A stretch of 64,000 nucleotides of DNA, from assembly GCF_018977255.1 (NCBI RefSeq), contig NW_024704742.1, positions 57,290,001-57,354,000 on the forward strand, written 5' to 3'. Positions 5,351 to 31,200 of the stretch are shown in pieces (the first letter of the stretch is position 1; each line of letters opens with the position of its first letter). The notes beneath the pieces are model-generated. The model saw only the letters and a list, made by a program, of their open reading frames with translations, ran no database searches and had not been told where the DNA came from. A program made the translations under genes and the position numbers. The DNA is from Callorhinchus milii (taxonomy: Eukaryota).

Positions 5351-5630
5351 CCCAGGTGCCGTACACCACCGTCACTACACCACCCTCACTACACCGCCAC
5401 CCAGGTGCCGTACACCACCGTCACTACACCGCCACCCAGGTGCCGTACACCACCGTCACTACACCGCCACCCAGGTGCCGTACACCACCCTCACTACACC
5501 GCCACCCAGGTGCCGTACACCACCGTCACTACACCGCCACCCAGGTGCCGTACACCACCCTCACTACACCGCCACCCAGGTGCCGTACACCACCCTCACT
5601 ACACCGCCACCCAGGTGCCGTACACCACCA
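5348..5630. repeat. 35-bp GC-rich minisatellite, 8 copies
   Basis: Unit CCACCCAGGTGCCGTACACCACCGTCACTACACCG; the first unit carries an extra 14-bp internal duplication. Confidence 0.9.
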
Positions 5631-6938: not shown

Positions 6939-6992
6939 ATGGAAAAAAACAAAAATGCTTCTCGTGGAACTATCAGAAGATCGACAGTTCAG
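6939..6992 (+). CDS. CENPU: CENPU coding exon 1 ([18 protein letters not shown])
   Basis: AG at 6900-6901, ATG at 6939, GT at 6993; phase 0 fits the next exon. Weak sequence conservation. Confidence 0.6.
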
Positions 6993-9900
6993 GTACACCA
7001 GGACAGAGATGGTGATATGCTTGTGATCGGATCCCAGATATCCTTTAAAGTTGTGGTATGAGTATTCTTTGCTAAGGATAATATCTGAGAAATAAATATT
7101 CCATTCTACAAATTAGTCAGATATAGTCAAATGAATTTTGATGCTGAATTAATTGAAGGGAAAATAAAGTCTAGATGGAGCTCCATTGTTGTGTACCCAC
7201 ATTGACTGGCATGTACAGCTGGTCGGTTCCACTCATGAGCCATAAAACTGCTCATCGTTCCTCTTTATAGCGCAGGTTGGGACTTTATGAATAGGTAAAC
7301 AGGGCTCTAATGTATAATGTACATGTGGTATGCAAGTCATGTAGATCAAGATGTGGTAAATGTTAAAATGGTAAAACATTCAGAAAGTCAAAGAAAAGAT
7401 GTGCTGGAACAGTAGAAATTTATGGCTAAACATTTTTCTTCTTTAGCCTGCTGAAAGACCGAGGTCCAAGCAAGCTGGCAGAAATCCCCAAAATAGAAAT
7501 CTTACTGTCTCCCACAAAAGTAAGATAAATTCAACAAGCCTCAAGCAAGTACTACCACAATTTTCTCCAAATCTCTCCAACATTTTAAGACATCCAGAAA
7601 GCCAAGAAGATGTTCCAGAGGATTATTTTGGTAATACCAGGGTGATGTTCAGCTTTATCATTTGTAGAGATATACAAACTCAGATGTTTAAAAATATCAA
7701 GTGCTCTCACAGGATTTGCCATCCTTTGAATGAAACTTCAGTTTTAAGTGTTACTCTGGCTCAGTCGGTAGTCATGAATCAAAGGTTGTGGGTTCAAGTC
7801 TCCATGTCTGCTGACACTTCCAGTACAATGCATTGTTTGTGGTGCGGTCCTTCAGAGGAGACATTAGATTGAGATCCTGTCGGTCTGTTTAGGCAGATGT
7901 TAAAGATTCCATGGCACTGTTCAAAAAGTGTTTCCCACTGTCCTGCCCAACAATCTTCCCAGATAGAATTGGTCATTCACTTCATAGCTCTTTATGGGAA
8001 TTGAATGTGCTAAAATTGGCTACAAACATAGTCACTACATTGTACAATATATCCTGTGAATTGCTTTGAGACTTTTTGATGTGATGAGGCGCAATAACAA
8101 ATGCAATTCAATTGTTGTAAAACACAATTCTGATATTTCATTTCAAATATTTGGAATTTATAACAATAATAATATATTAAGAATAATATAAACTCATAAT
8201 AATGCATGATAATAATCCCTCAAGAAAATAAATAAAATAATAATTAGTGACTCAGTCCACAACTGTTTGTGGGACATTGCTGTGCGCAATTGACTGCCAT
8301 TTTTCGCCCACAAATATACAGTTAATTCACTTTACAGAATAATCTGTGAAGCGCTTTGAGACGTGGAGAAGACATGAGAAGCGCTATATCAAATGCAAGG
8401 ATTATTATATCATAATCTTTGCATTTGGTATAGCGCCTTATCACATCATAAAGGCATCTCAAAACGCTTCACAGAATATACTGTAAAGTGGATTGACTAT
8501 TATTTGGGCAAATAGGAAAAGCTAAATAGGCTTTGGTCATTAAAAGTATTAAATCATTTCTACCCTTATTCGTCTTATTTTATAGCTTACCCTTTGCACA
8601 GCACTGCGATATTTTCTGGTGAATCGGATCCCAATGATGAGGACAGTGAAGTGGAGATAGCACGGCCTGCAACGCGTGATAAGAAACAAAGAAAGCCAAT
8701 GCAGAGAGGAATTCCACAGAGAAAAGAATTTAAGCCTAAATCATGGTAAAACTAAAATAAGATTGTATGTGTGTTTAAGAGAGTGTTTGAATACTTTAAT
8801 TTTCTTTTAAATCCTGTAAAGACTGTAGAGTCTTGTAGCATAGTGGTTAGAGCACTCATCCCAGAAGCGAGAGGATCCGGGTTTGAATCCCAGGCAGGCC
8901 GAAGCGTTAGGTAAATTTCCTTACTCCACATGCCTCTGTTTACCCAGCAGTAAGTAGGAACATGGTTGTTAGTCGATTGGTGGATTGCCTTTCCGGAGGT
9001 AGTAATCACTTAAAAAAAATTAAATAATAATTTGGTTACTTAATCCACAGCTGTTTGTGGCACACTGCTGGGCGCAAATGGCTGCTGCATTTTGCCCACA
9101 TAATATACAGTCAATTCACTTTACAGTATATTCTATGAAGCGCTTTGAGACGTCTCAAAGACATGATAAGGCGCGATATCAAATGCAGGGATTATTATAG
9201 TTACTTTGCATGAGGCAGGTTGTGTTCTGAAGATGAAGAGATGAGTATGCAGTCTTAATCCTCAGTACATGATTGGTTTTAAGCCTTTCTGCTCCAGCTC
9301 TCTATCTCCATCCCGGAGTCCCTTTGCCTTCCTCCCCCTCTCCCCCTTCAAGGTCTGTCTCAAGACTACGTTTGGTCAACTTCCCACCCCCTGGACCCCT
9401 TGGTCCCCACCCTTGCAAATCCAACCCCCAGCTCAGGTGGAAACCCTTGACTGTCCTACATTTTGAGACAACTTACCAATGTAAAAGGCACTATACGAAT
9501 GCAACCCCAAATAATTGACAGTCAATCCCTTTGGTGACTGAGGGATTTGGCTTAGTCCTGTGAATCGCTTTGAGATGTCTCCATAGCGTGATATATCAAA
9601 TCCAAGGATTTTTATTATTATAATTTGTTTGTTGTAAATTTAATGGGTTTTCAATATTTTTTAAGGAAATAAAAATAATATTGTCGAGCTTCCATAATGT
9701 TAAGCTGCCTACTGTTATAAACCGCATAATGTTATCCTGACCACGGGTACCAGACATCCTTGGTATGTTTTGTACACATTTGAGTTTGCGTATTGTTATA
9801 GCAATTATTATTATTATAATTCGTCTAATGTAAAAAGATAAAATAACTGATTTTATTTTTTTAAAAAAACATTACAGTGAAATTAAAGTAAAATATTGGA

Positions 9901-12900
9901 TTTTTTAAACTTTTTTTCTTATCCTTGAAATTCTAAATTTATTCAGAAGTATTTGCAACTGTTTATAAGGGAAGTTCTCCTATTGTTATAGTACGCATAA
10001 TGTAATGATTTTGGTCCGACAGATATAACATTTGGCAGACTCGTCTATGTATATTACCCGCAACCTCTAAAGAACGAGAAAGGAAGCATTTCTGCTCTTT
10101 TTTAAAAAAAAATACTCGTACGTTTTTTGTTTTCATTCTCCTATTTTCTTTTCATTTTCGGTCTCTGCTATTTGATGAGAGTGAGCATGCTGCATTATTG
10201 ATCAAAGCCACGTAAGGTACATAAGAGTGCTATGGGGTGATCATCCATGAATTTTACTTCCTCAGCATGGGCCTGTCATGTTTCCTGATGACATGTTAAT
10301 TGGGGCCAGTAAACTGACCTCACTGAATCCTACAATGGCAACATTGCACTTTGTACTGTGATGTTTTAAAACAAAATCCTTGCATTTGATCGTGCTTTTC
10401 ATGTTGGGAGGACATCTCAAAGTGCTTCAGGATATATTGCATACTCTTTGGCTCTTGCCAACCTGCACCTAATGCTCTTCGGAATAACGTAAGCAGAGCG
10501 TGTCCCTCTGGGGAGAGAGTGCACATTCAATTCCATGCATGTGAATTTCCATGTGGCGGTAGCATGCTTGGTAATCTCAGTCTTGTTTGGATACTCTTGA
10601 CTGTGGTGATGTGTTTCTGGATGTGTCGGTCAACCGAATGGCCAAAACAAGAATAATAATCCTTAAACTTGATAAAGCACCTCAACATCTCAAAGAATTT
10701 TACTATAAATTGTGATGGTTGTGTATTCAAGCGTGGCAGTCAATTTTGCTCACAGAAATCTCCCACAAATTACTATGAAGTAAATAACCAATTTTTTTTT
10801 ATCTAGTTCTTTTAACCGCATATCTGAAAGCATGGAAATGGAGGAGAGTGAAGTGAAAACAGGAAATACTGAAGATGTGGAGAGTGAAATAAAAACAGAA
10901 AATACTCAATATGTGGAGAGTGAAGAGAACACAGGAAATACTGAAGATGTGGAGAGTGAAATAAAAACAGAAAATACTCAATATGTGGAGAGTGAAGTGA
11001 ACACAGGAAATACAAAAGATGTGGATACTGAAGATGTGGAGAGTGAAGTAAACACAGGAAATACTGAAGATGTGGAGAGTGAAATAAACACAGGAAATAC
11101 TGAATATGTCGAGAGTGAAGTGAACACAGGAAATACTAAAGATGTGGATACTGAAGATGTGGAGAGTGAAGTAAACACAGGAAATACTGAAGATGTGGAG
11201 AGTGAAATAAACACAGGAAATACTGAATATGTCGAGAGTGAAGTGAACACAGGAAATACTAAAGATGTGGATACTGAAGATGTGGAGAGTGAAGTAAACA
11301 CAGGAAATACTGAAGATGTGGAGAGTGAAATAAACACAGGAAATACTGAATATGTCGATAGTGAAGTGAACACAGGAAATACTAAAGATGTGGATACTGA
11401 AGATGTGGAAAGTGAAGTAAACACAGGAAATACTGACGATGTGGAGAGTGAAATAAACACAGGAAATACTGAATATGTCGAGAGTGAAGTGAACACAGGA
11501 AATACTAAAGATGTGGATACTGAAGACGTGGAGAGTGAAATAAACACAGGAAATACTGAAGACGTGGAGAGTGAAATAAACACAGGAAATACTGAAGATA
11601 TGGAAAGTGAAATGAACACAGGAAATACTAAAGATGTGGAGAGTGAAATGAACACAGGAAATACTAAAGATGTGGATACTGAAGATGTGGAGAGTGAAAT
11701 AAACACAGGAAATACTGAAGATGTGGAGAGTGAAATAAACACAAATACTGAAGATGTGGAGAGTGAAATAAACACAAATACTGAAGATGTGGATACTGAA
11801 GATATGGAGAGTGAAATAGACACAGGAAATACTGAAGGTGTATTTTTGAATGAGAAAACCAAAGATGGTGCCAAAAAGGTATTTTGTCTAATTTAAGCAT
11901 GGTGGAATTTATAATTCCTTATACCTCTTCATTTCCACTCAGTGTTTATTGGTGGTAGTAAGTCTATTGGTTTAATTGGAAGGGGCCCGACAATTGGTAA
12001 GACCAGAATATTGGGGACGATATGGTGTTGGTAATGTTACTGCAGTATAATTTTACAGTTGCTAATCTTAATTAAACAAAACTTTCAAAATTGATCTAGC
12101 ACCAGAAAACTAGTGGTTCTGCTGCCAGATTGAGGCTGAAAACTCAGCTGGTTCACTATGTACTTCAGGGAATGAAATCTGCCATCTTTATCCGGTCTGG
12201 CCAAAATGTAACTCCAGTCCCATAGTTTGTAGCTGACTCTTAGCATCAGCTGAAATGGCCTACCAAGCCACTTAGTTAAGAGAAGATCCACGATCACCTT
12301 CTCGGGGCAACCATGGATGGACAGCATCACGCACATCCCCCAATGAAAAAATAATAATTTGGTCACTCAGTCCACACCGTTTGTGGGACACTGCTGTGCA
12401 CAATTGGCTGCCGCGTTTTGCCCACAAAATATACAGACAATTCGCTTTACAGTATATTCTGTGAAGTGCTTTGAGATGTCTCGAAGACGTGATAAGGCGC
12501 TATATCAAATGCAAGGATTATTATTATTAAGCAAAAACATTGCTCCCATTTATGAAACTGTATTGACGGTAGAGTTGAAATGCTGAAATCAGAGGGGTCA
12601 GATGGGTCAAAGGGCCTTCTTCATTTGATTTTCTTACGATCTCATATCTAGAGGGCTTCCCCCTGTAGTCATGTAAGCTCATCTTCCTGTGAATACCAAA
12701 GTGGGTACAATGGGATGTACTTACTGTCTTTATAAACTGATGTCCGATTGTATTGTATTTATTTTCTTGATTACATCAAACCCCATTACAATAAGATGTT
12801 TCAGATCCATAAAGCCGAACAGTGGATTATAATGGGGTGTCACAAACTCTGCCCCGAGCGTGGACAAGTTCTACTCAACTGTCTTGCTCAGCTCGGGCAC

Positions 12901-15900
12901 CGCAAGGACCATATTAACACTACAGGTGGTGACCTCCTACCTTGTTTTTCCCACTCTCCCTTGTTTTGAGAACTCTCCACTCAGACTCCACACCCGCACC
13001 CCCCATAGAAACACTAAAAAACAGAAGTGTGAAAGACACAATAGACAGGACATTGATAAAGATTGGTGATGATTGCTGGAGTGTAATACCTGGGGCTTTG
13101 ATCACTTTCATTGGAGTTTTTGTCTTTGACGACAATGCTGGTTTCTCCCATCTTCCTCTGATCAGACAGACAGGTCAGGTCACTCTTCTGTGGGGAAGTT
13201 CAATCTGAGTTGTTAATTGGTGTTTGATGTGCCACTGAAACCGATACTGCGATTTTCCCTTTGGAAACTTGTGAATGCTCAGTGATACCCCCATGTTATC
13301 TCAATGAAAAGAAAAATGACTTTTTCTACACAGGACAAAAAGCCAAAATAGCCACCGCTACATCACGTCCTGCATAACTGAACAAAGCTCTGGATGGTAG
13401 GGTGGTCTTAGCTGGACAAGTTATGAGAATAAGAAGCTTGCCAGTCTGTGTTTGTCATGGTGATCACAGAATAGTAAACATCTGCACCAGATTCCCATCA
13501 CTGATTTCCTAATGTCAGCTATACAGTACAATACATCTTACATTTATATAGTGCCTTTCATATCAGGAGGGCTTCTCAAAGTGCTTAACAATGCTGGATG
13601 CGCACCCCTCTGGGAATGGGGGTGAGAGCTGATGGGGTGGGAGGGGAAAGATGACCCAAAGAGAGGTCAAAGAGCTGTTCTGTCACAGGAGGAGTTTTGG
13701 AAAATTACCCTGCAGCATTCCCGCTTGTAAGATTCCAGTTATTAAACTTTGAATGATGCTGCCAGATTAAACAAACAATCTTTTCACAGGCATCAGGAGT
13801 GAGAAACAAATTGAAAACAGTGCCCAGTTCACAGTTCAATAGAGCCTCCAAACAGTTGAAGAACGTTCAGTCACGGACAGGTGCAGCAAAGAAACCTAGG
13901 GCTGGGAAATCCACAATCAGACAGAGGGCTGTTTCTACTGGTACCACAAAGAAGTCGTCATTGGGTAATTTGCAGGCGTCTAATTCCACAAAGCAAAAAC
14001 AAAATCGCAACAATGCAGATGCATCAGCCTCTCACAACAGGGTCTCCTTTCATGGAGAGCCTTCCACGGTAAGAGTTGCATTTCTCTGTAATATGATGTA
14101 TTTTACTTCATCAGACTAGACCAAAGGAAACTTAGCAATGGGACAATTTAGTCCTTTTTTTTCACACTTAAGTCAAAAAAATTATTTTGCAATTGGATGA
14201 AAAAGAGATGAAGTGGTAGTTGAGGTTTTTTCAATACTAATAATAATCCTTGCATTTGATATAACACCTTAACATGTAGTTGAGATATTTTAAAGCGCTT
14301 CACAGAATATATTGTGAAAACACGTGTTGATTCTTCTAATATATACCTTGCCTACATTTGATGTTTATGGAAATTTTGAATTTGACTTAAGTTTGGGAAG
14401 TATTGTATTTTCGACCCATTAAACAGTATATCTAATTTATGTTATGGATTGTTTGTTAGTGCCAATTGAAAAAAAACGAATATGACTTTATTAAATATTA
14501 TTTATTATGGTTGGGGAAAAAAACAGGTTCTACTAAGTTAAATACTGTAATATAAATCTGGATTCTAGAACTAATAGTAGTAGCACTCTTGCCTCTGAGT
14601 TACAAGGTTGTAGGTTCAAGTCCCACATCAGGACTTCGAATCACATTGTCTAAACTGACACTTCAATTGAGTACTTGGGTATGTTGCATTGTTAGAGATA
14701 CCGTCCTTCGCATGAGACGTTGAACCAAGGCCCCGTCTGCTGTTCAGGTGGATGTTAAAGATCGCATGGCACTGCTTGAAATGAAAAGGGAGTTTCTCCC
14801 AGTGTCCTGGCCAACAATCCTTCAAATAAAAATGGTCACTCACTCCATGGTTGTTAGTGGAACATTGCTGTGCGCAGCCGGCTGCCCCATTTCATCCACT
14901 AAATACAGTCAATTTACTTTACAGTATATATTGTAAAGCACTTGGAATGTGAAGAGGCAAGGATTATTATTTTTGTTTTTGCCTACAAAGAGCAGTCACT
15001 ACATGTGACAGTAATTGTCACATGTAGTGGAATCCTGAGGTTATTAGAGAGAGCACTTGCCTTGTAAGTGAGAGGACGTGAGCTTAATGGCAGGGCGAAA
15101 CATTGGGCAAGTTTCCTTCCTCCACACACCTCTGTTTACCAGCAGTAAGTAGGAACTTGGTTGTTAGTCGATTGGCGGATTGCTTTTCCGGAAGTAATAA
15201 TCCCTTTATATATAAAAAAAGAAGAATTTGGTCACTCAATTCACGACTGTTTGTGGGACACTGCAGTGTGCAATTGGCTGCCGCGTTTTGCCCACAAAAT
15301 ATACAGTCAATTCACTTTACAGTAGCCTGTGAAGCGCTTTGAGATGAGTTGAAGATGTGATAAGGCACTATATCAAAAATTGCAAGAATGATTATTAGTT
15401 ACCATGACATGTTGTAGGTGTTGTAAAAATACAATGAAAATGAAACCAATCCTAACATCAATGTGTTCCAATGATTCCAGTAATTGCTTTCGTGAAAATA
15501 CTAACCTTTGATCATCAGATTACAGTGTCGCAGTTTATTGCTAGGCAAAGTAGTCAATGTACAAAACTGCACACCTTGTATGTACAGCAGTGGTAGGGTG
15601 AACTGTGACTCAATTATCATCCAGAATTCTGCAGTAAGAAAGGGGAAAACATGAATTTAAAATAAATTATTTTATTTCACTTTTTATGTCTGTATAGTTC
15701 AATCAGTAACAAATATTCCATTGATGATAAGATTGCTGACCCAAGAGGTTAATGGCAACTTAATCACTAAGTTAATGGCTATATTAACTATGAGTGATTA
15801 AGTTGCCATTAAAGTTTTTCGGTCAATCAACCTTATCTTGATTTTACTGCAGTGGTTGAATTCCTTCTCTAAATTAATAAACAAATACTGCTCTATATTA

Positions 15901-18900
15901 ATAAATGCACTTTCCTTTCTTGCTTAAGCAGTCCTTTACATGTTATAGTTTTCTTGGGCAATAAAAAACAAAACCAACAAATTGGTGGGGAGACATGGGC
16001 ATAAATGCAATTTATTAGCTGGGGCACAGAGAGGGGGAGATTGCTATGCAAATAAATGTCCTAAAGTTTTTGATACAAGATGTTGCTTATTCTTTTCTGC
16101 TTCAGTTCCAGTCAAACTTATTTTCTAATGCTTTCAAGTAGACTTTTCTAAACCAGTCTAAACCAAGAAATTTCAATGAAGGGAATTTTACTGGATAAAA
16201 TTTGCTTGCCGCGTTTGCCTATAAGATATGCAATGACTTTACGTATATCCTGTGATGTGCTTTGAAACGGCTTTCCGATTTGAAATGCTTTACTAAATAC
16301 AAGAATTAGAACTATTATTTTTACTCCATTCAAATTATTCTCCTGATTTGTTTTTGCTCATTGTAAAAATGTTTAGTATTTGGTCAAAGTAATATAGTTT
16401 AGTGAGTGGTGAGGCTTGTTCTTAAATCACTTTAAATAAGAATTAGCAACAATTTGAATAAAAATGTAATTATTAAAAACTAATCATTTATAACAAAGCC
16501 CATGTGTATAATAACTGGGCCAAAATTTTTTGACAGTTTACTTGGTAATGGAAAACCTGGTCAATATGTTCCTTGTTCTGCTGCAGGAAAGATCCATAGC
16601 TTCTAAATCCTACAGTCAGAAAAGGAAGAGAACATCAGTTAGAAGACCTGAATCTAGTTCGTCCCATGAATTGACTTCATCTGGATCTTCTACTCCAGGT
16701 TAGGATGTTAAGAATTGCACTACAACAAGTTTCTTAATTGGAATGTCTGATGAAGATGGGAACTGCTTTGTGCAGTGGGTGATCGCAAGATAGGTTCGGA
16801 TAAAGAAGACTGTGGCTCATCTGATCTCATCCCTCCAGAATATCCATTTTACTGTCCTCCCATCGCAGGATTAACCAGCTTTTTAAATGAGTTTAGTGTC
16901 CTGGCCTCAACCACTCTTCATGACAACCTATTCCAGTTGTTAATTACCATCCGAGTAAAGAAATATTTCCTGTTTTGTCCTGAAATTGCCCTTTGTAACC
17001 CTAAACCTATGCCCTCTTGTCTACCGTCTTGTATCTTAAAGGAAAACAAGGGGTCATCCATGATCATGCTGTTCTTTCCCCCCGGGGACCTAGCCTTAAA
17101 TTTAGCACAAACTGAAGGATGACATTTTTCTATCTACTCTAAGAGTTATTTGTGAATGTGTTTTGTCTAAAATTAGTGTCTTATGGGCATGGGCTCAAAG
17201 CAAAACCTACCCTTTATTGAGCACTAAATCGCCAATCTCACTTGGGATTTTTTTTACAATTAAGCTGATTCACTTACTATTGTAATGAAAAAGATACTTA
17301 ACAAGAATTACATATCCTGGATGATGGTTTTATAGGAATGAAACAATCAGTGAAATCACTGCATTAGATCATGGATGTATGTTTTGGGGGAACTATGGAG
17401 CTTATTAAGCTAAAACCACATAGCTTACCATTGAGAGCACTGTCTGGCAAACTTCTGGCTGCTTGTCTAGCTGGGACCACCCTGTTCTTTAAAACATGCA
17501 GGGTTAACAGGATCGGAATAGGAAGTAGCCCTGTCTGCATTACTAATCGGTCCCTCCATATCTTGCAGATTAGTCAGACAGGCTAGCCTGTCACCAGCAG
17601 TGCACTGGTGTACTGTGGTCCCAATCTGCCTCAGGAACCAGGCTACTGAGACCAACATAGAGGGTTGACTCGGTTCCGACATTCTATTGCCAAGCATCTG
17701 CATCACCTTGGAGACAGTTTACTTTCAAGGAGACCCTATTTAGCTCTCCCTTCCCAGGATAGTCACTAGTTGGTCTTACAGTAAGAAAATGTTATCGAGA
17801 ATGATTAGGAAACTGCAAATTTTAATTACTGAAGGAGCATCTTTTGTTTTTGTGTTACCAATCAGAGGCTGGTCCATCATCTGTGAAGATCCGCTGCCCA
17901 GAAGGCACAAAAAGATTAGCAAAAGATCTTACTATACTAGATGTAGTTCTGAATGAGTTTCAGATGATTTTCACAAAATACAAGTAAGTTCAGATCGCTG
18001 TGTGCAATGCTGTCAAGTACAATACAATACAAAATTACATTTATGGAGCCTGCTGAGCAGAGAGAGCGGACAGGTTGACAAGGGGTTAGCAGGTCGGAGA
18101 GGTAGGAGGGAGCAAGCCATGGAGGACCTTGAAAGTGAGGACGAGAATTTTGATCTTGATCCTTTGAGGGACGGGGAGCCAGTGGAGCCAGACGAGGGTG
18201 GGTTTGATGGGGTCACGGAGCCTGGTGCAGGAGAGGATACAAGCTGCAGAGTTCTGGATGATCTGCAGCATGTGGAGGGAAGAGTTGGGAAGGCCGACAA
18301 GCAGGTCATTAGCATAGTTGAACCTGGTTGTAACAAAGGTATGTATGAGGGTTTCGACGGCCTGAGGGTTGAGGCAGTGGCGGAGTCGGGCAACGTTGTG
18401 GAGGTGGGACAGGCAGAGCGGGTCCTCGCACAGATATGGGAGAGAAAGGACAGTTGAGGGTCGAACAAGACACCAAGGTTCCTGACTGGATTGTATAAAG
18501 TATAATTTATTATGCAACCCTTAACAGATTCTTCATATCTAATCTTTGCCGTTTCCCCACAAGACATTAGACATTAAGAAACCAGAAATGGCCAATAAGC
18601 ATCCTTTTTATTATCTCAGTACCACCTATTCCCCTTTTGCAGTTTCTTCTCTTCTTTCTCCAGAAATGCATCTGTTGTAGTTGCCTCCAGAACCAATTTA
18701 ATTTAGACTGTTTGCAGTATAATGATCTTTCCTATTGCCTTATTCCATAAATCAATTATTTTTATTAATAAGATTGTTGCCTTGTTCTTATCTTTCTAAT
18801 TTCATTTCTTGCAGTTTGTTAATTTGGTAAATTAGATTATTTAAACTTTTTTCACCTTCTGTTACAAGGTAAAATATAATTATAATTTAGAACATTTACA

Positions 18901-21175
18901 AATGCAACCTTTTGTGCTTTATTCATAATTTTGAATTGGCTTAGAGTTTTAAATTAGGATATTTTCAAACTGGATTTAAGTTAATTGCAACTTTCATTTT
19001 GCCAGCAATATTCTGGATAAAAGGCTGGTGAGCCAAATAGCTAGCCCATTTCGCTGGACAGCAAAATTCTTTGGCTTTTGTCCATTTGTGGCTTGTGATT
19101 TAGTGACCACAAATATTGCAAACCCATAATTGCAATTAATCCAGTTGGTAAATCATAAATTAGACCTGATTGCCTTATTTACTAAAGTCATCAGTCAGCC
19201 TGGCAGTCAGTACTCTCACCTCTTTGTCAGAAGATTATGGGTTCAAGCCCCCAACTAGTACTTTTAATTCAGTCTTGGCTGACACTGCAGTCCAGTGCTG
19301 GTGGTGTGCTGTATTGCACTGTTCAGGTGGACATTAAAGATCTCATGGCACTTCAAAAAGAGAAAGGAGTCTCGACCAACGATCCCCCAGATAAAATTGT
19401 TTGTGTGCAAATAACAAAGCAATTAGGTGCTATATCAAATGCAAAGATTGTTATTTTTGTTCGATTTCATAGGGAGTCTGTGGAATCAAATCCCTGCAAA
19501 AAAGCAATTGATAGCTTCTATACCAATGTGGAAGAGCATATTATGGAAACTGTAAGTACTGAATACATTTGGAACCAAATAATGTAAACCTTGGGAGCCC
19601 TTTTTTTTAAACAGGTTTCAAACAAATTAACATGGTTTTCAATATGTGATTTCCATACCGACCTATCCACTCCTTCCGCTCAGTGGACTCTGGGTCCCAC
19701 CTGAAATCCAGGACTGTTCCCTGGTGTAATAACTACCTCAGCACCCTTAAATCCCAAATCTGAACACTCGAGCACAGATGGCAGAAAACTGGCCTTGTGG
19801 TTCACTGCCAAATGTAGCTCAAGCATCTTTGAACCTCCCTCATAATCCATAATTGTGATCTATTCTTAGGCCATTCTGGAGGCCAAATAACCCCAAAGTG
19901 CTGTTCTCCACCCCTCTTATCCCATTTTCAGATCGCACCTGAAGACCTTCCTCTTTGACTATGCTTACGGTCGCTTCCCCTGGCTCATTGTCAGGCTCCT
20001 GCACTGTTAAGCACTCTGAGATGCTCCCTTCATGCAGGGCACTATATTAATGCAAGTTGTTATTAATTGCCTAACTGTTTTCTGTTTAAAGATTGGTACA
20101 GTTCAAGAGCTGCAGGATTTGAAAAGAAAAGATGCAAAGGTGATTATTTTTGTGATTATACCTTCATTGAATTTTTTTAAACAAAATTGGCATTTTAAGA
20201 TTTCAATGCCAAAAGTCTTCACTTTTCTGCACAATTATACTATTATAGGTGACAACAACTTTCAACAAGAAGAGAAAACGCTTTCTGGAAGTTCAGAAGG
20301 AATTAATTGAGTAATGCTGTTTACTTTTATTTTAAATCATGAGCACTGGCTTATTTTGTGTGAACAACAACAAATTACATTTGTACATTAAGAGAAGTTA
20401 GTGAACAGTGCAATATTTTTAGGCATTGAACTAGCTCATATTTAGTTGGTAAATCTTGGATCATTGTTCAATAACATTAAATGCACAGTAAAACATTATG
20501 AATTTCTGATTTCACTAAAGTGATCATCTGAAGTGATCACTTAGGCACAACCAGTGGAATGTCTTGGTCTCATTTCGTTCTAATTTACAGACAAGAAGCA
20601 CAACTTAAACAGTTATGGAAGGAACATGCTGAATTGAGTCAAAGGAAATCAGACTTTCAGGTTGCAACACAATTCCTGTCTGATTTTAAAGAATTGCAGA
20701 TCCAGTATTGTGAACATAGGAATAGAAACCCTACTGAAAAAGAAACGGTAATTTTTTTTTGTTGTGTAATGCACTCGTAATTTGTGGGGGTAACTGCTTT
20801 GTTGTTGCTTAGTCATTTGTAGACAATGAACCATTCTGGACTAGATTTAACCAAAATCCCAGAGGTGAACAAAACTAATTTATTAACCAACCATTTGGTG
20901 TGTTTTGTTCAGAACAAAAGCACGTATGCTGCAAATCAATAATTTTCTAGACATTAATCTTTTAGCCTGCAGAGATGGAAGGGGACACACGTCTAAACTG
21001 CTTGGGCAACAAATGTAAGCTCTACTGTTACTAGTTTAAATATCTTCCGTTTCATCAACAGTATGATATTTCAAGCTTTCCTGCTCTGCTGGTAGAATCG
21101 CGAGGAATTTTGGGAGCAGTAAAACAGCTGCAGAATATCAATGCAAAATTGCAGCAGGAACTTGACAAGAACTGA
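6939..21175 (+). CDS. CENPU: Centromere protein U (CENP-U/PBIP1/MLF1IP), spliced gene model, predicted 812 aa
   Basis: join(6939-6992,7447-7630,8586-8745,10807-11878,13790-14068,16587-16698,17866-17983,19473-19551,20092-20139,20249-20310,20591-20747,21062-21175) = 2439 nt, all GT-AG, phases consistent. PLHSTAI polo-box motif; C-terminal CPEG...[37 protein letters not shown]. Confidence 0.85.
7447..7630 (+). CDS. CENPU: CENPU coding exon 2
   Basis: Pyrimidine tract + AG; open frame PAERPRSK...[22 protein letters not shown] at 7631, phase 1. Confidence 0.75.
8586..8745 (+). CDS. CENPU: CENPU coding exon 3 with the PLK1 polo-box docking motif
   Basis: YPLHSTAIF matches human PPLHSTAIY; phase 1 to 2. 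Confidence 0.85.
8826..9198 (+). mobile_element. Young tRNA-derived SINE, full length, long subtype
   Basis: A/B-box head, CCTCTGTTTACC...GTTAGTCGATTGG insert, Deu-like block, L2-type tail with (TAT)n. Sister copies at 15027-15397, 24603-24988(-), 45269-45729. Confidence 0.8.
10807..11878 (+). CDS. CENPU: CENPU coding exon 4, tandem-repeat-expanded acidic exon
   Basis: Poly-T + ATCTAG acceptor; phase-2 start in frame with the 10832-11896 ORF; AAG/GTATTT donor in phase 0 matches exon 5. Confidence 0.7.
10844..11840. repeat. 36-bp coding minisatellite (~25 units) with a 123-bp higher-order unit
   Basis: Unit ~GAGAGTGAAATAAACACAGGAAATACTGAAGATGTG; length variants are +15 bp and -3 bp. Confidence 0.95.
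12015..12350 (+). mobile_element. Old SINE of a third family with a CR1-type 3' end
   Basis: GAAATCTGCC...CCGGTCTGGCC...GAAATGGCCTACCAAGCCACT...CACCTTCTC...GGGCAA...CACATCCC, recognised from memory as a cartilaginous-fish repeat. Confidence 0.5.
13790..14068 (+). CDS. CENPU: CENPU coding exon 5 (basic, K/R/S-rich)
   Basis: TTTTCACAG acceptor, 93 open codons, ACG/GTAAGA donor; phase 0 to 0. Confidence 0.7.
15027..15397 (+). mobile_element. Young SINE, long subtype
   Basis: Same modules as 8826-9198. Confidence 0.8.
16587..16698 (+). CDS. CENPU: CENPU coding exon 6
   Basis: [21 protein letters not shown]...SGSSTP; CAG/GT ends; phase 0 to 1. Confidence 0.7.
17866..17983 (+). CDS. CENPU: CENPU coding exon 7
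   Basis: [26 protein letters not shown] resembles human VHIWCPEG...LNIVLPEF; GTAAGT donor. Confidence 0.85.
18020..18495 (-). mobile_element. L2-clade LINE fragment
   Basis: Minus-strand peptides [47 protein letters not shown]. Confidence 0.85.
19473..19551 (+). CDS. CENPU: CENPU coding exon 8
   Basis: [32 protein letters not shown] donor. Confidence 0.85.
20092..20139 (+). CDS. CENPU: CENPU coding exon 9
   Basis: [16 protein letters not shown]; phase 0 to 0. Confidence 0.85.
20249..20310 (+). CDS. CENPU: CENPU coding exon 10
   Basis: [20 protein letters not shown]; phase 0 to 2. Confidence 0.85.
20591..20747 (+). CDS. CENPU: CENPU coding exon 11
   Basis: [19 protein letters not shown]...FLSDFKELQ...EKET, coiled-coil character. 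Confidence 0.85.
21062..21175 (+). CDS. CENPU: CENPU last coding exon
   Basis: [37 protein letters not shown], matching the CENP-U C-terminus. Confidence 0.9.
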   Translation, partial: YDISSFPALLVESRGILGAVKQLQNINAKLQQELDKN

Positions 21176-21823
21176 GGAGCATTTCTATAATTCCAGAGCA
21201 GCTGTATGAGCTGGGAGACTATCTATTCTCACCGTGGAAGCAAAGTGATTCACTTAAAACTGAACAGTGTGTGATTTTCAATTTCATACATCTTGTCTTT
21301 GTACTTTTGTATTGGCAATTTTTTTTAGCTTATTTCAGCAGCCATGGTGGAGGGGACTGTCTGAAAGACATGTCTGCACTATGTACCAGTACTAGTTTAT
21401 TTAGATGAGTTCAGCAGAACTGAAGATAGCTTTCCCCCCCCCCCCATTATTTGAGGATAAGCTTCACATAATTCATAAATTTGTCCAACATTTTTCTCCC
21501 ACACTTATAATGCTGAGGAATAATCATCTGGTATCTGCCCATCACAACAAATGCTACTGACGAACAACACGAAGATGCTGTGCCAAAGCAGACCGCAACA
21601 ATATCAGGTTGTGGTAACTATATAACAACGTAAAAAGATCTTAAGTAAATGAAATTGCCTTAATTGGATTCAAAACATGTTTTTTTAAGGTTTAAAAAAA
21701 ATGTTTTGCCACTTTTCAACTGCATTTTCAGTTAGTGTAGGATTTTCACTAAAAGTTCCATGCAGCCATATGCAGTAGCATTAAGTGTAATATACTGTAC
21801 ATTAAATATTCTTGTGTATTTAA

Positions 21824-21887
21824 AATAAAGCTTTTGTTTGTGAATGTAATGTAATAAAGTCTGATTTTGCTACATTTTCAAAATAAA
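21824..21887 (+). terminator. Cluster of candidate CENPU polyadenylation signals
   Basis: AATAAA at 21824, 21853 and 21882; these are the first canonical signals I found after the stop at 21175. Confidence 0.55.
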
Positions 21888-21901: not shown

Positions 21902-22264
21902 TCATAAGGATATGTGTTCAGGACAATTTGTTTGGTCTGATACATGCTCCAGTTGCTGCACAGCTGCTAGTAAACAGTTATCTGATAGCTCTTCAGTCTC
22001 GTCACTACTCAATTCTGACTGGATTGAATCAGCAGCAATACAAAATTCAGCATCTTCAAGAGCTTCCAAAAACATTACATCATCAGCGCTGTTCCCAAAT
22101 TCTGCATCCAGACTTCCTGAATGTGTTCCAGTCTTTGGTGTAGATTTAGCACTAGAGTGCAATTGTGTTACACTGTACTGATACTCATTCTGTGTTGGAC
22201 ACTCCACATTTTGACTGGCTTTAATGTTTCCATCCTTATCCATGGTAAAAAGAAACTCATCATC
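21902..22264 (-). CDS. PRIMPOL: PRIMPOL last exon (RPA-binding motifs)
   Basis: DDEFLF...DDVMFLEALEDAEF...EELSDNCLLAAVQQ...SL*. Confidence 0.9.
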   Translation of the reverse strand, partial: DDEFLFTMDKDGNIKASQNVECPTQNEYQYSVTQLHSSAKSTPKTGTHSGSLDAEFGNSADDVMFLEALEDAEFCIAADSIQSELSSDETEELSDNCLLAAVQQLEHVSDQTNCPEHISL

Positions 22265-25200
22265 CTGAAACAAAAAACAATTCATTTTGTTTCAAACAAA
22301 AAAAACTTAAGTGCCTGTACATTCACACTTATTAATGTTGAGAGAACAAGTTTATTTGCATGGGATATTGATTCACCAATTGACCTATTTACTGTTGGGT
22401 ATGCAGGCTTGTGGAGTACGTAAGCTTGCCTAAGGTTTCACCCTACCCAGGAATTGAACCCGAGTCCTCTCACTTGCGAGGCGAGTGCTCTAACCAATAC
22501 GCTACTCCACTAAATGTTCCTATTCCAGCAGACAAACCTGAATTACTACCAGGAGCAGTTCCAGACTGATTTCATCTTCTCTTCTGTTAGACTGGGAATA
22601 CCATTTAATATCTTAAATGGGATTAAGGGATATTGGGATAAGGCAGGGTTAGGTTATTAGCTGGTGTTAGATTAGAAGATCAGCCATGATTTAATGGCGG
22701 GGTAGGCTCGAAGGGCCGAATGGCCTCCTGCTCCTACATGTTATGTTATCTGACTGATACCTGCAAAACCAATATATACTAGGATCAACTGTGGCTTAGT
22801 ACTGCACTAAGTTCAAGTTCTCCACTTATGTTTTAGTTCAGTAGCTCCTGAAGTACACTGTTAAGGTTTCATTACATACCATGTCAATGAGAAAGTCCAA
22901 ACAGCATTCACAAGGTAATGGGCGACCTGGAATTCAAGAATAAGAAAATAAATTCCCAGTAAAACTAAATTTAATTCTAGATTGTAGTCTGAAATGTGAA
23001 TGTATAATTCTTACTTTCCGATTTGAAATTCTGAGCTCTACAAAGATGATCATAGCATTTCTGGTACCATATCTCTCTCTTCAGGTCAACCACAATCCTT
23101 CAAAAGAACAATTTGTATATTATAGGATCCGAGATTCCTTGTTCTTCGTTCCATGGAATAAATATATATTGTATGCAGTAGGAGTCTGTAATCAATATTT
23201 AACTATACAAAAATATGTCACATAAATGAGAAAGCGTCAACGTCTTTAATTATTAGTTGCTTAAGGAGTCATAAAAGCACTATTTATACAGTCACTGCTT
23301 TAATGGTTTACAGACGATACGCAATCTTTGATACAAGAAGTTTAAGAAGATCTATTTTCATCAGACAACCTTTTCTAGAAGAATCCTACAATTGGGATCC
23401 GAGTTGAAATAAACTTCCAAAATAAGATGAAAGTCTATTATCTATTTACTGCAAGGAGCTTCTGTAAAATTTGTTTGCGCAGTTTCAGCTTTGTGTGTTG
23501 AGGCTCACAACATATGACCTTAAAGACTGATGGTTTGAGGAAATGGAAATGACACACCAGTGCAGGAGGGCAAGGATACCCAAATGGCAGATCACAAATC
23601 TAAGAAAGATTTCTTCCAGACTCCACACGTTAATCATCAGCTGTTGTTAGGGATCATGCTCTTCCCAATGTCAACACCTCTCTCTACTGTGAATGGAGCT
23701 GGACTTCATAGCTTGTCAATGGGGATAACGGTTTACAAATTAAAAGAAAGTCACTGCAACGGAAGTGGGGATCCTTCGCATTCACCTCTTGTTAACTCTG
23801 CAAGCCAAAGCATTAATGCAGTGGTGGCAAATCCATGGCCCATGGGGCTGTCAAGAAGCCGCCCCCAACCCCCGAACATTCACACTAGTCTAGGTAAGTC
23901 CTTGTTTGAATGGTAGTGTGTTTCCAGGTTTTTCTTGATTGAATATTTCTTGATTTAGGGTTTCATTCAAGAACTCTTCAAATAAGAACATTTATTTTGT
24001 TGGCCGACCAAAAAGGCTGGCCACCGCTATACTAAAGGGTAGTGTTCTGAGCTGGAAAAACAGTGGGAAGCTTGGCAGACAGGACCCTCAATGGCAAACC
24101 ATGCAGTGCTAGCTGGTTAAACTCGAGTAGTAATCCAACACCATCCTGGAGATAATACCCTCCAGAAATAGGCAAAAGAGAGTGCATCCCTCCAGGGAAA
24201 GACTGCACATCCCAGTTCAGACACTGAGATTTCCATGATTAAGTGGTATACATATGTGGAAATATTAGTCTGATTTGGCTACTCTTCAGCATAGCTGATG
24301 GGTTTCCTCATATACCAAGGCTGACCAAAACCAAAATGAAGCAGTTAATGTTCATGTGAACTATACTTACATAATATTGTTGTTTTTATGAGCTCTACCA
24401 ATATTCTCACACCAGTGATTTTTGCCGATGTCATAAACAATCAATTCTTCAGAGGAAAAGTAATTCCAACGACGTATCACTGAGGAGATTAAGTTATTTA
24501 TTATTTTAAAGCTAATTTTGAACCAGATTATGAACTAAAAAGAATAAAATGGACCATTTTACTCTTAGAATTAATCCTTTCTATTTGCAGGAAGATTTCA
24601 TAAATAATAATAACATAATCCTTGTATTTTATATAGTGCCTATTCATGTCTTCGAGGCATCTCAAAGGGCTTCACAGAATATATTGTAAAGTGAACTGAA
24701 CTGACTGTATATTTTTGTGGGCGAAACGCTGCAGCCGATTACGCACAGCAGTGTCCAACAACCGTTTGTGGATTGGGTGACCAAATTATTATCATTATTT
24801 ATTTATTTTTTGAAGGGGTTATTACCCCCGGAAAAGCGATCCGTCAATCGACCAACAACCGAGTTACTTGCTGCTAGATAAACAGCCGTATGGAGTAAGA
24901 AAATTTGCCTAACGTTTCGCTCTGCCCGGGAATCAAACCCAGATCCTCTTGCTTCGGAGTGCTCTAACCAATATGCTGCAGGACTCCACAAATCTATGAG
25001 TGTTTTTGCATGTAATAAAGAAAAACTTACCACCTTGTATACCTCCCTTGTTCACTTGATTACTAATAAAACTATCGATTTCTGGGTATGGTGAAGAATG
25101 GTATCCTCCTACTGTATCTGTCAAACAAGGGAAAAAATATTGTCTCAGCGTAAAATGCAAAATATAAACCTACAGTGCCTTGTAAATTTCTTAATGACCT

Positions 25201-28200
25201 TCAACATAATTTAGAATAAGTAGACAACCTCTGTTTTACTGATAAAAAGAGTTAAAAAAAAAATTCCTGTAACAGTAATAACAAGGTAATCTTTCTTTAA
25301 ACTTACTCTATTTGTTAAAAATAACACTTGCATTAGATATGCCGCCTATAATCAAAGTCTCAAACTGCTTCACAACATTTCTGTGAACTGTAGCAACCGT
25401 GCATTTACAGGCAGACACAGGAGCAAATTGCACATAGCAGTGTCCCATAACAACCATGAGTGATGGGCAATTTTCTGGAGGATTATTGGTCAGGAAACTG
25501 TGTGCAGTCTTTCTGACTAATGCCATGGAATGCTTAACATCCACCTAGATAGACACTCGGTTTAACATTTGATGGGAAGGATGGCACCTCTGACAAAGCA
25601 GCACTGCACTAGAGTGTCAGAGTACGCTATATGCTTAAACTGGAGCTCGAAACCACAAACGTCTGACCCAGATGTGACAGCTGCCAACTAAGGCAGGCAA
25701 ACAGACCTAAAGACGAGAACAAGATAACATTTGTCTTAATATTAAATTTAACTAACAATGTGCAAATACAATAAAAGTCTCAGAGATTAAGTGTATGTTG
25801 CCACGATCACTACTCTTAATGCCAAGTGGCATTTCTTATAAGTCATTATGGAATCTTGTTGTTGTTGTGCTTAAAATTGTATACAGCCAACGTAAACAAG
25901 CTTCAAAGTGAACAGACTGAGAACCACACAATAGTAAAATTCTACCTCCATGATCTAACTCAGGGATATGTAAACAAATCATTAGTAAATTCAATACCTG
26001 ACACTGTGAGATGTGCATTATCTTGAGAGATCCATCCTCTGGCTTTCTTAGCATTTGAGGTATCACAAGTCAAAACCGTCAAATTATCAGAAAACCTGAA
26101 ATATTTACAAAAAAAAATTGTTTGGCAAACGTGAGGCTGATATAAAACTAAATCCCGCTATACAGTATTTACATTTTTTAATTTACAACATTAACAGAAC
26201 CAAACACTCCCAGATACTAAAAATACAAAACAATTTTGACTTAAAAATACTACAGTGTTGAGAATTTGAGATATTGTACCTAACATTGCTGACCAAAGAA
26301 TTCAGGAAAATTAACTCCTCCTTAGAAATATTCTTCTGAGGCTTGGGAATAAACTGATTGTCTTCAGCAACTTCAAAAGACGTGTTCTTGCCCAGTTTAG
26401 ATGACTTATACAGTCGAAAGTTCCTGTTTTTTGTGTACACGGCTATATAAAAAATAGTAAGGCAAAAGTCAAGTATACTTTTTTAGATATATCAATTTTG
26501 ACAAATAGTTACCCAATATGTAAAGTACTAGATGATATTTTCCAAATTGCATGCTGCAATATATTCTGAGTTTCAATAAGTAGAAGTAGTTTTGTTACGT
26601 TTCCTGTATAATTTGCAATTAAGTACAAACTAAATATTAAAAATTGCATTAAAATCATATTTTAATTGTATATAGCGAAATTAAGATACATCTCTTAGTG
26701 AAATTAAGATACATAGCCCTTATATCTCTTGTACTGGATGGAGGGATACAAGATTAATTCAACAATTCCTCCATCAGTTGACCAGCCAATCCTCAATTCT
26801 CGAGTACATAGAGGCAGAGCCCATTATTTCTGAACGATTGAATGCACATATACTGTGAAATACTAAATGCACATCTTACCTAGATCCACAAAACTTTGGT
26901 CAAATCCATCTCTACCTTTCACAATCAGAAATGACAAATCTGCATCCACATTGCCATTCTCTGATGTTTCCCATCCTGTGGTTTTATGGCTTTTTGAACA
27001 GACATTCTCAGAACCATCTTCAATATCTTTCCTCTTTCCTGGAGTGGACACCGAATCTTTGTTGCTGAAACTGAGAGAATCTTTACCACTGCATTTGTTT
27101 TCCAGTACTGTTATCATAGGCTGCAAGATTGTTGTGATGCAGTTTCCTGAAACAACAAACAAAATGTTGAATAGATGTGATACCACAGATGCAATAATTT
27201 GTAAAGTGTAATTATTTTAGTTTATTACCCTTTATTATAAATTGAATGTCCTTCTGATGTGAAAGGCTTTATATAAATGTAAATTTGCTGTTGCTTAAAA
27301 GTAAATTCATAGTAAAATTGATGTACAGTATTAAAGTTTCTGGATGTTCAATCTTACCCCACAATTTTCAACTAACTAGTTTTGTGAACCTCAGGATTTT
27401 TATCTAGAAAGTAGCAAAGTCCCATCTTCAATCAGCAGTCTGTGCAGAATAGGTACTAGAATAAGCCTCACTTGGTTGGGGAAGATAAAGCAGACAGTGT
27501 TGCCGAATTGCGATCATGATTTGCAACCCATGCAAGTGGTAAATATCTATGAATTTTTCAGGAGCTGTATTATTTGTATTGGGTTTACATATACACCCAC
27601 AGAATATACAGTCAATTCTCTTTACCGTATATTCTGTGAAGCGCTTTGAGACTTCTCGCAGACTTGATAAGGCGCTATATAAAAATGCAAGGATTATTAT
27701 TATCCTTGGAGTCAAAGAGTCTACAGACACACACTGTTAAGACTCACACATAATAGTAATCCTTGCATGTGATATGGCGCATTATCACGGCATTGCGATG
27801 TCTCAAAACACTTTGACTTATGAGTGACAAACTATAGCTAGAGTGTTGTCCAGGAGGCTCACTAATTAAGCACCTTGATCAATTTCACTATATCAATAAT
27901 TATCAATATAGGAGCTAGAACAAACGAGGGACTTATTTTGATGTAACACAGGTTTTCACCACAGACTAATTTAAACTCTGGCAGTGATCTCATTGATTAC
28001 TTTTGCCATTAATCCTCTCTGGGCGGGAGACTTTTATTAAGGTTATCTACTTGCTCAGCATCAGTGCTAAGTAATGTCTCTTTGATTGTAATTCATGTAT
28101 AGGGTTGTGTGTGTGTGGGGGGGGCTGGATATGTAGGATTAGCTCATAATATTTTGCATGAAAAATGATTCCATGGTGACTTATGTGACCAAAATAATAA

Positions 28201-31200
28201 TAAGCAGCACAAGATCTACAGTAATTGAATCAAAACAAGTATGATGGCAAGGATGACTTCACCCCTGGGATTTAGGGTTCTTTTTCACTGAAGGATGGAG
28301 GTGACACCATGACATTACCGAGATTCCAGGCAGTGAAATCATTGCAAAGAAAAAGTTACTTTATTGACTAAGAGAAATAATATCAGAGGAAGCTTACCAA
28401 CATGTATGTTATTCTTAAAGACTGCGTTAGGAAGATGGAATATTAGATGGCGGCTAAATTTTTCACCAGTACTGGAGTCCAAGTTCAAAACATCTTTCAC
28501 TGAGCATTTTATTTTGTAACGTTCTTCCAGTTTTTGACAAACATACTGAATAAACAAAACATGAAATGACATGGGTTCTAATTTTGTATTTGAATCTAAA
28601 CTTCTGTAATTTTATAATAACCTTTTATTTGATATGGCATCTATAATATCAAAACAAGTCACAGATAATTATTGTTATGTGTAGTGACTATTTATTTGAA
28701 GTCAATTTGCACACACAGTAAAATCTCAAAAAAGGTTACAAAGCGAATGATTAATTTATCTGGAGGATTGTTTACTTGGATACCAGGTAAATTGATTTAC
28801 TATTTATACACTTATGTTCAACGATGCTTTCCTCTCTTTCTATAGGGTAGTCACATCATTCACTCTTCCACATGATAGCATTTTAAAATGATGTTAAAAG
28901 AAATAAAAATCAGCATTATAAATATATTATCAACTACAAAGAAAAACAGAACTAGTAAAAATACACAAGATGGTTTGATATAGAACATAATCTTTCAATT
29001 TGAAAACCCTCGTCAATTCAGCTGTGTTTAATAATATAAACGTAGCACAAATTTCCCTACAACAAAAGTTTATATAGTGTCTTTCATATTGGGAGGATGT
29101 CTCAAAGCGCTTAACTAAAATGAATGAAACACTTGATCGGGAAAAATGTACAGGTTTATAACCAAATAAAACAGCAGTATACATAAACTATTACAATAAT
29201 GCTCTTAGCACCTGAATTAATTTTGTGACCATCTGTTTCCCATCACGCCCTGGATTCATTTGTTTATTGAATTCTAGGTCAAAGTAAAGATGACAGACAG
29301 ACCCTTCTGGAATCACTTCATAGCAGTGCATCAATGATTGCCTGTGCATTCTGAAAAAAATAACAGGCTTTCAAACCAGCAACACACCATTACTGTGCAT
29401 TGTTGCAAACAAATAACTACTTTAGAATACAATTAGTGCCCAGCATTTAACATTATAAAATCATGTTGTAGGAATCACATTGATTCCTATCCCCAAATTG
29501 AAGCTTTCCTCCTCCCTAAGGTTTCCACTGGTCTGGCTCTGCATCTATGCTGAGACAATGACATCATCCTTCTGTGCCACTGAGCCCAAAATACATTCAA
29601 ATAGTATTGAAAATCTCTTCTCACCCATCTGTGAGAAGACTAAAGATTTTGAATCTGCTATGCAGCCCATCACGATGATTGATTTTTTCCAAATAATTCT
29701 TACCCCTTTTGTTAAAATCACAAAATCCATCTCATGAATTAACTTCCCTTTCCAAACATTAATTTTCCCATATGTGCACATTGTACAAGATTATAACTAC
29801 ATATTTTAACATAGAACATTAGAAATTAAATCATCTTTGGTACATTTCCTCAAATTCAGTCCTGCCAGTCACAAAGCTACCATTAGCCCATTACTTCCAA
29901 GCTCACTACTACTCTCAAATAAAATTATTAATAATTCTGTGTAAATACTAGATATGGAGCATTTACATATCTAACAACAGCAATATAACAGCTTTTGATG
30001 TTTCTACCTCAAAGTTATAAATAAAAATCCAACAGGGATGAATTTTAATAAACATAATATCTGCTATAGAAATTCATACAGAAATAAACACTTAGGATTT
30101 TTTTTAGCCCAATAGTTACTTACTGATAGTAAAACCACAGCTCACTGTGTGTTGTGACAAGATAAATTCTCTGTCCAAATGCAATATCCTTCTTCTGACC
30201 TTCCTTCTCCAATGCAAATATGTGCACATCCTTTAATGACAAATAACAACAACTTTTAAAAAGATTGCAATGCAAAATACAAGCAGTTATCTAATTTATA
30301 ATTTTATATATTAATTGCTTTGTCCTTCGGGTGACACATTAAACCAAGGTCCCATCTGCCTGTTCAGATGGACTTTAAGGTCCCATAGTTCTATTGAAAA
30401 AGAGAAGGGAAGATTCTCCCTGTGAACTGACCAACAATCCCCCAGGTAAAATTGATCATTCACTTCATGGCTGTTTGTGGGACATTCCTGCGTGTAAATT
30501 GGCTGACCCATTCACCTATATCACTACACTCTACAATAATCCTGTGAAACGCCTCCTGATATGAAAGGTGCTATATTATCATCACAAACACACTGTGCTT
30601 ACTGATAGGCTTTTTTCCTGGCACATTGAAGCTTCAACTTCCAGTCTGAATGATCATCAATTGATGCTCTGTTTACTGATGAATAAAGGAAATTCAGTCT
30701 GGCATAGGCAGTTTGGAAGTATGGTATGTTTTAGTTCCAATATTGCCTAGACACCTGGTTATAGAAATCAAGTATACTTTGCAAAGATGTCTCTGTTTTC
30801 TTGTGGAAGACTACCCATGGAAGTCAACAAAATACAGCCTTCCAACATAACAAAGCAGATGTTAAAGCTACTCTTACTTTGTATGAAAACTTAACATCAC
30901 AACATCAAAATGTAAAAGAAGCTACCACTAACAGAAGTGAGCTACTGTCAAAGAGTTCATCTTGTAAGGATCTCATTGAGTACAAGGAGCCCTAGCAAGG
31001 CAATATTATAAATACCAATGTAAAATTAATAGTTGATATACAACTTTATCCCACAATCTCTTTGCCTCGCCCTCTCCCTTGTCTCCTTCAAAGTCCGTGG
31101 CAAGACGCTCCTCTTCGACTGTGCCTTCGTTCAACCTCCTACCCGCACCCTCCCTACCCTTCACCCCTCCTGATCCCAAACCCCAGCTCAAATGCAAATC

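Follow-up and report, generated by a model that had tools for sequence, protein, structure and literature searches.

Vertebrate CENP-U (PBIP1), a subunit of the CENP-OPQUR complex, combines a disordered N-terminal tail bearing a PLK1 docking motif with a C-terminal helical domain, and the protein described here shares both. In human, CENP-U residues 1-249 have been reported to be unstructured, their function being uncertain (PMC13161223), CENP-Q's basic tail attaches to microtubules (PMC6162344), and the CENP-Q and CENP-U tails bind FACT and are needed for that binding (PMC11912937). Two further systems offer a comparison for a large, repetitive or acidic insert: KNL1, in which species-specific arrays of MELT repeats arose by higher-order multiplication (PMC4558858), and Big tau, a cytoskeleton-linked protein that owes about 250 acidic, disordered residues to a single large exon, 4a (PMC12896622).

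In the window, the whole 64-kb stretch of elephant shark (Callorhinchus milii) DNA that was analysed, we found a CENP-U gene whose fourth coding exon contains a tandem array, giving the protein 319 residues more in this exon than ordinary vertebrate CENP-U and a pI of 4.6, as against 9.0-10.1 in four other CENP-U proteins. Like KNL1, it is a kinetochore protein, predicted to be disordered, with a species-specific repeat array; on the other hand, each KNL1 unit has a phospho-docking motif that recruits BUB1-BUB3, whereas no known motif was found in the CENP-U unit, and most CENP-U proteins have no array. Exon 4a of Big tau is optional and of conserved length across vertebrates, whereas CENP-U exon 4 cannot be skipped in frame; the conservation of length and charge that marks an exon of the Big tau type is not seen, the stretch that starts with the ISE motif and closes with lysine measuring 31-32 residues in nine of nine sharks and rays and 353 in the elephant shark.

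Gene model, identity and database records

The 12-exon model (Table 1) has GT-AG borders at all 11 introns and encodes a product of 812 amino acids; exon 1 probably starts at 6902, upstream of the ATG. By homology the gene is CENP-U: the protein matches the Pfam CENP-U domain (PF13097) over residues 534-713 (E 6e-29; 101.7 bits against a cut-off of 21), a match that exons 7 and 8 also produce as single-exon translations (2 of 10 tested), and phmmer against PDB returned human CENP-U (7pb8_U, 418 amino acids; E 2.2e-39), docking motif included. This PLK1 polo-box docking motif, F79 to T86, aligns with human F71 to T78 and has an aromatic residue at -7. The C-terminal helical domain is 58-64% identical to that of sharks and rays. 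Loss of CENP-U function is unsupported, all 12 exons being intact and the folded domain conserved.

Table 1. Features of the CENP-U gene in the window (positions are those of the window)
Feature	Position	Strand	Phase	Remarks
Coding exon 1	6939..6992	+		from ATG; M1, K3 and K5 invariant in 8/8 aligned rows
Coding exon 2	7447..7630	+	0 to 1	
Coding exon 3	8586..8745	+	1 to 2	contains the PLK1 polo-box docking motif
Coding exon 4	10807..11878	+	2 to 0	1072 nt; residues 133-490; present in both RefSeq models
Exon 4, non-repeat 5' end	10807..10843	+		ISE motif; homologous to shark/ray exon
Exon 4, coding minisatellite	10844..11836	+		25 units; 331 residues; net charge -99; 123-nt higher-order repeat
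Exon 4, non-repeat 3' end	11837..11878	+		closes with KK, as in most sharks/rays; within RNA-type contigs
Coding exon 5	13790..14068	+	0 to 0	basic
Coding exon 6	16587..16698	+		joined to exon 5 in run X7
Coding exons 7-12	17866-17983, 19473-19551, 20092-20139, 20249-20310, 20591-20747, 21062-21175	+		folded helical domain and stop codon

The earlier note had proposed, from the letters alone, a 2-to-0 exon with a poly-T and TAG acceptor, an AAG/GTATTT donor and 357 open codons, and all of these are borne out by the 12-exon model, with the acceptor at 10806/10807 and the donor at 11878. When the intron was scanned for 2-to-0 exons, 93 acceptor-donor pairs passed a loose filter, of which 8 had a donor score of at least 6, 6 of them outside exon 4; the competing exons starting at 9298, 9319, 12859 and 12892 were set aside, since exon 4 has conserved ends and a spliced donor. 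Skipping of exon 4 was likewise rejected, because its omission from the model translation causes a frameshift and a stop two codons into exon 5.

A protein search with exon 11 led to a single protein, of 812 amino acids and from Callorhinchus milii, that matches the window model letter for letter. It belongs to a RefSeq cluster of two, XP_042198338.1 ('uncharacterized protein LOC103178209') and the older XP_007891023.1 ('centromere protein U'), which have the same 812-residue length and differ solely at residue 402, inside the array. We take the two records to come from two different assemblies, possibly of one source animal. The protein of about 812 residues that had been predicted is identical to XP_042198338.1 and is thus already in RefSeq, its current record bearing an uninformative name. 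No description of the elephant shark array or of CENP-U tail repeats was found in the literature covered, mostly outside subscription journals, and the main text of the PhyRepID preprint does not mention 'cenp', while its supplements may list the gene. These findings explain poor annotation, the elephant shark record being an 'uncharacterized protein' and the records of sturgeons and paddlefish 'myb-like protein V'. The protein was also said to be roughly doubled in size, which is true relative to human CENP-U (418 amino acids), but the ratio is only about 1.65-1.8 relative to six shark and ray proteins (450-492 amino acids).

Structure and origin of the repeat array

The approximately 25 repeat units expected in exon 4 were counted as exactly 25, of 36, 51, 33, 48 or 30 nt, every one of these lengths being divisible by three; an extra 5-residue part is present in 7 of the 25. 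The middle of the array forms a 123-nt higher-order repeat of 7.1 copies at 93%, and the longest exact repeat within exon 4 is 221 nt. Asp or Glu make up 33% of the array residues, and the expectation of an acidic, probably disordered insert of about 330 residues agrees with its length, charge and predicted disorder. Exon 4 is a coding minisatellite in the sense of head-to-tail units of 10-100 nt within a spliced, open exon. A search of the 64-kb window with one 12-nt motif of the unit, on both strands, found none outside exon 4. The array also hit YidB and BAMBI in Pfam, with no passing stretch, and these hits were taken as artefacts of composition.

The open frame through the array is weak evidence on its own, since the unit contains no stop codon and one minus-strand frame, 10802-11887, is open across exon 4 as well, which we take as a by-product of the repeat. 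The weight of evidence for exon 4 rests instead on spliced contigs and on the homology of both exon ends. In an alignment with the six shark and ray proteins, I138, S139, E140, E143 and K490 are invariant in all eight rows, while the array is a pure gap in all six; the comparison of the orthologous exon in relatives that the earlier note had called for shows two ends that align and an array absent from the nine sharks and rays compared, which have 31-32 residues there. No other chimaera CENP-U sequences were found.

The comparison also suggests where the unit came from. Its first eight residues have their best match at a point eight residues past ISE, which is the offset of unit 1, in three sharks and, weakly, in a skate. 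For a single unit, none of 300 shuffles gave as good a match in Stegostoma, and p was 0.017 in Heptranchias and 0.05 in Scyliorhinus, the match being not significant by this shuffle test in 6 of the 9 sharks and rays. Removal of 24 of the 25 units leaves a linker of 222 residues with a charge of +20, near the values of most sharks and rays, which are 214-225 residues and +4 to +11. The equivalent shark and ray segment is already acidic, at -3 to -9 over 31-32 residues, so that the charge of the array follows from copying. From these comparisons we infer that exon 4 is old and that a native 36-nt piece of it was amplified; of the proposal that a minisatellite expanded inside a CENPU exon, the array itself is confirmed, but it would have grown from the exon's own coding sequence rather than been inserted. 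Slippage and unequal crossing-over are the likely origin of the array, which would have grown stepwise, with a 36-nt unit, then a 15-nt internal duplication and then a 123-nt block copied several times.

The changes among the 25 units comprise 5 synonymous and 12 replacement changes, not different from a neutral expectation of 20-25% synonymous (p 0.25-0.44, at the low power that 17 changes afford), and under the neutrality test the units would be free of stops with a chance of 0.5-0.7. Acidic residues have been replaced by neutral or basic ones inside the array (E to K, D to Y, E to Q). All length changes keep the frame, and the reading frame alone appears to be constrained.

Splicing of exon 4

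Part of exon 4 is present in 18 of the 24 sequencing runs listed, none of which is on record as RNA, the label RNA-type used here being a guess. Contigs of four runs from four studies (X1, X4, X6 and X7) were placed on 11800-16720, a region comprising the last unit, the donor and exons 5 and 6. In X6, record 17 carries 11806-11876 and 13788-14069 at adjacent record positions, 71 of its letters belonging to exon 4; in X7, record 24 carries 11800-11876, 13788-14067 and 16586-16698, all adjacent, with 77 letters of exon 4. The two-letter offset is the AG common to the exon end and the acceptor, and the joint is therefore 11878 to 13790. This joint, which the earlier note had named as a check on the model, was thus found in single contigs of two of the three RNA-type runs, from two studies, and exon 4 is spliced at least at its 3' end. 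Pieces of X4 end at 11878, 13789-14069 and 16586, the joint being absent among the rows listed, whereas X1 is DNA-like and reads through the donor into the intron, from 11800 to 12375. The joint is also absent among the 15 joints listed, rows that are taken by interspersed repeats, with 1127 further joints beyond them.

Of 67 words sampled from exon 4, fractions of 0.45, 0.39 and 0.39 are present in X4, X6 and X7, respectively, and 0.54 in X1. The two exon ends alone would be expected to account for 0.16-0.26 of the words, a range that the RNA-type runs exceed (binomial p 0.017 or less), which lends modest support to the presence of the array interior in X4, X6 and X7. Among 55 candidate short proteins over residues 1-175, none was a transcript fragment of the 5' junction or came from another chimaera.

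Several minor observations concern the surroundings of this joint. Models of two sharks lack the equivalent of exon 5, wholly in the three from Heptranchias and for the most part in Stegostoma isoform X2, and the contigs of run X4 break at both ends of exon 5, which may sometimes be skipped here too. Two differences from the window, both probably alleles, were also seen: a 28-nt insertion in run X1 at 11923, in the intron right behind exon 4, and a change from A to G in run X7 at 13913, in exon 5.

Tail expansions, charge and possible roles of the array

A CENP-U profile search found 158 proteins, 150 of them listed, and 79 of 178 proteins, 12 of them one skate cluster, were kept as complete, with docking motif and entire folded domain; the 99 dropped either were fragments or had a variant motif, and they include some long proteins, of 582-605 amino acids, from frogs and brittle stars. 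In the 79 complete rows, the linker measures 77-625 residues (median, 194; many below 150), and an exact internal repeat of at least 25 residues is present in seven rows and absent from 72. Besides the elephant shark protein (812 amino acids; period 12/41), these are the paddlefish (892 amino acids), beluga (834; four copies) and sterlet (699; three copies) proteins, all with a period of 114, the catshark Scyliorhinus canicula protein XP_038659830.1 (681; period 93, residues 171-449) and those of the frog Dendropsophus (536; period 42/84) and the frogfish Antennarius (513; period 10). Those of the other species are RefSeq gene models. As in the elephant shark, tandem repeats lengthen the same linker, but the net charge is basic (+9 to +39), unlike that of the elephant shark. 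Exon 4 had no blastp match at E 0.01 to the repeat-bearing CENP-U of other species, and by sequence comparison there are five separate tail expansions, this one included, with unrelated units. In the catshark protein the equivalent of exon 5 occurs three times, at a period of 93 that equals the length of exon 5 in the elephant shark; this repeat is likely a whole-exon triplication, or else a model artefact. The elephant shark array is the less surprising because RefSeq already has the protein, because the repeat is native to the exon and because tail expansions are seen in four or more further vertebrate lineages, in one case a longer one.

The array is predicted to be disordered. Its mean hydropathy of 0.35 and net charge of 0.30 per residue place it on the disordered side of the boundary, and the AlphaFold model gives a pLDDT below 50 for residues 1-641, followed by helices at 641-662, 666-768 and 782-811, the low confidence being partly expected from an alignment of 8 sequences, 2 of them with the array. 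With a net charge of -76, as against -17 to +39 in the 78 other rows, the linker is the only strongly acidic one of the 79, and the array is directly followed by a segment of +23. Searches of the 331 array residues found no S-[ST] polo-box, [ST]-P, PP2A-B56, PP1, D-box or KEN pattern; they found 4 PLK1-type, 3 CK2-type and 50 acidic-primed CK1-type ([DE]xx[ST]) patterns. The CDK1 priming S-T-P that lies about 20 residues past the docking motif in human (T98) is absent here, as it is in sharks and rays, and is present in 3 of the 79 rows; since 76 rows lack it, it is no general trait of the family, and the array does not account for its absence.

We consider it most probable, at roughly two chances in three, that 25 copies of the exon's own 36-nt piece, in an otherwise ordinary CENP-U gene, act as a tolerated, disordered spacer. 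The array sits between the docking end and the anchoring end and removes neither: the protein would keep its anchorage in the CENP-OPQUR complex through the C-terminal helices and its docking of PLK1 through the N-terminal T86 motif, by a tether about 2.5 times as long and reversed in charge, with a random-coil reach that would be about 20 nm instead of about 12 nm. Besides the low power of the selection test and a single-unit match that is not significant in 6 of the 9 sharks and rays, two considerations count against this reading: (i) by analogy with the human tails, of which CENP-Q's attaches to microtubules and those of CENP-Q and CENP-U bind FACT, a reversal of charge is unlikely to be wholly silent, and (ii) the recurrence of expansion in five lineages could be a sign of length being favoured, not just tolerated.

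The latter consideration leads to an account in which expansions in fishes extend the reach of PLK1 docking from the inner kinetochore, whatever their sequence. Independent units of 12/41, 93, 114, 42/84 and 10 residues, in five lineages, all lie between the docking motif and the folded domain, and the calculated gain in reach is in keeping with it. However, 72 of the 79 rows have no long repeat and many linkers are shorter than 150 residues, copy number differs between sterlet and beluga, and the tail is the only place that could tolerate a large insert, so that position alone shows nothing; we regard selection for length as quite unlikely. A very improbable alternative is that the cellular protein is mostly shorter, either through an internal splice that removes part of the array or through a mis-assembled copy number. 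The spliced contigs cover the 3' junction only and cannot span the array, given its exact internal repeat of 221 nt, the RefSeq models are predictions, 40 in-frame GT sites lie inside exon 4, and minor isoforms are possible among the 1127 joints, 1298 loose ends and 94246 pieces beyond those listed. Against this, the donor at 11878 is used in two studies and scores 7/9, compared with at most 5/9 for the internal sites, the only pyrimidine-tract acceptors found in frame with it, 10807 and 10831, both precede the array, the RNA-type runs contain more exon 4 words than the exon ends would be expected to supply, and both RefSeq models have the same length.

An active role for charge was also weighed, namely that selection keeps the array as an electrostatic regulator, which folds onto the basic exon 5 stretches of CENP-U or onto the CENP-Q tail and so damps microtubule, DNA or FACT binding, or which binds histones. 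The adjoining segments of -99 and +23 and the rank of this linker as the sole strongly acidic one would fit such a role, the 50 CK1-type patterns could add further negative charge, the basic CENP-Q tail (PMC6162344) and the need for the CENP-Q and CENP-U tails in FACT binding (PMC11912937) provide targets, and Big tau has an acidic exon with a proposed shielding role (PMC12896622). We nevertheless find it unlikely: the ancestral segment was already at -3 to -9, so copying yields charge without selection, changes that remove or invert acidic charge have occurred within the array, and no other lineage has a strongly acidic linker. A broader proposal, equally doubtful to us, is that the CENP-U tail is an unrecognised repeat hotspot of the inner kinetochore, as KNL1 is at the outer, in which chimaeras made a polyanion that acts in cis as a regulator of the basic CENP-Q and CENP-U tails, which bind microtubules and FACT, and that gives the PLK1 dock twice the reach.

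A neutral array would be no more than a minor curiosity, and one of a common kind. The natural variants, with linkers of 77-625 residues and charges from +39 to -76, suggest that the length and charge of the middle of the CENP-U tail can vary widely, and they are ready-made constructs for testing whether the charge of the tail, or how far the PLK1 dock lies from the inner kinetochore, matters.

Some further features were seen in the protein and elsewhere in the window. The only [ST]-P sites in the whole protein are S58 and T619, and S-S-T-P at residues 617-620 (window 16690-16698), just before the folded domain, is its sole polo-box-type CDK site, with P620 invariant in 8/8 rows; speculatively, it could take the place of human T98, and the array would then separate the priming site from the docking site. 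Downstream of CENPU, a minus-strand exon matches human PrimPol, and PRIMPOL lies at 21905-29370 on the minus strand, tail to tail with CENPU; in human, the two genes are adjacent as well. The apparent last PRIMPOL exon, open to 21905, ends about 25-100 nt from the CENPU poly(A) signals at 21801-21882, and the two 3' UTRs probably overlap. At 5376-5629, in a GC-rich stretch about 1.3 kb upstream of the CENP-U ATG, lies a 35-nt tandem repeat of 7.3 copies at 98%, each unit of which holds a CAG/GTGCCG donor-like site, and which may overlap a non-coding first exon or promoter. A 37-nt satellite, its unit length not a multiple of three, runs from 61320 to 63967, to the window end, with at least 71 copies at 87%.
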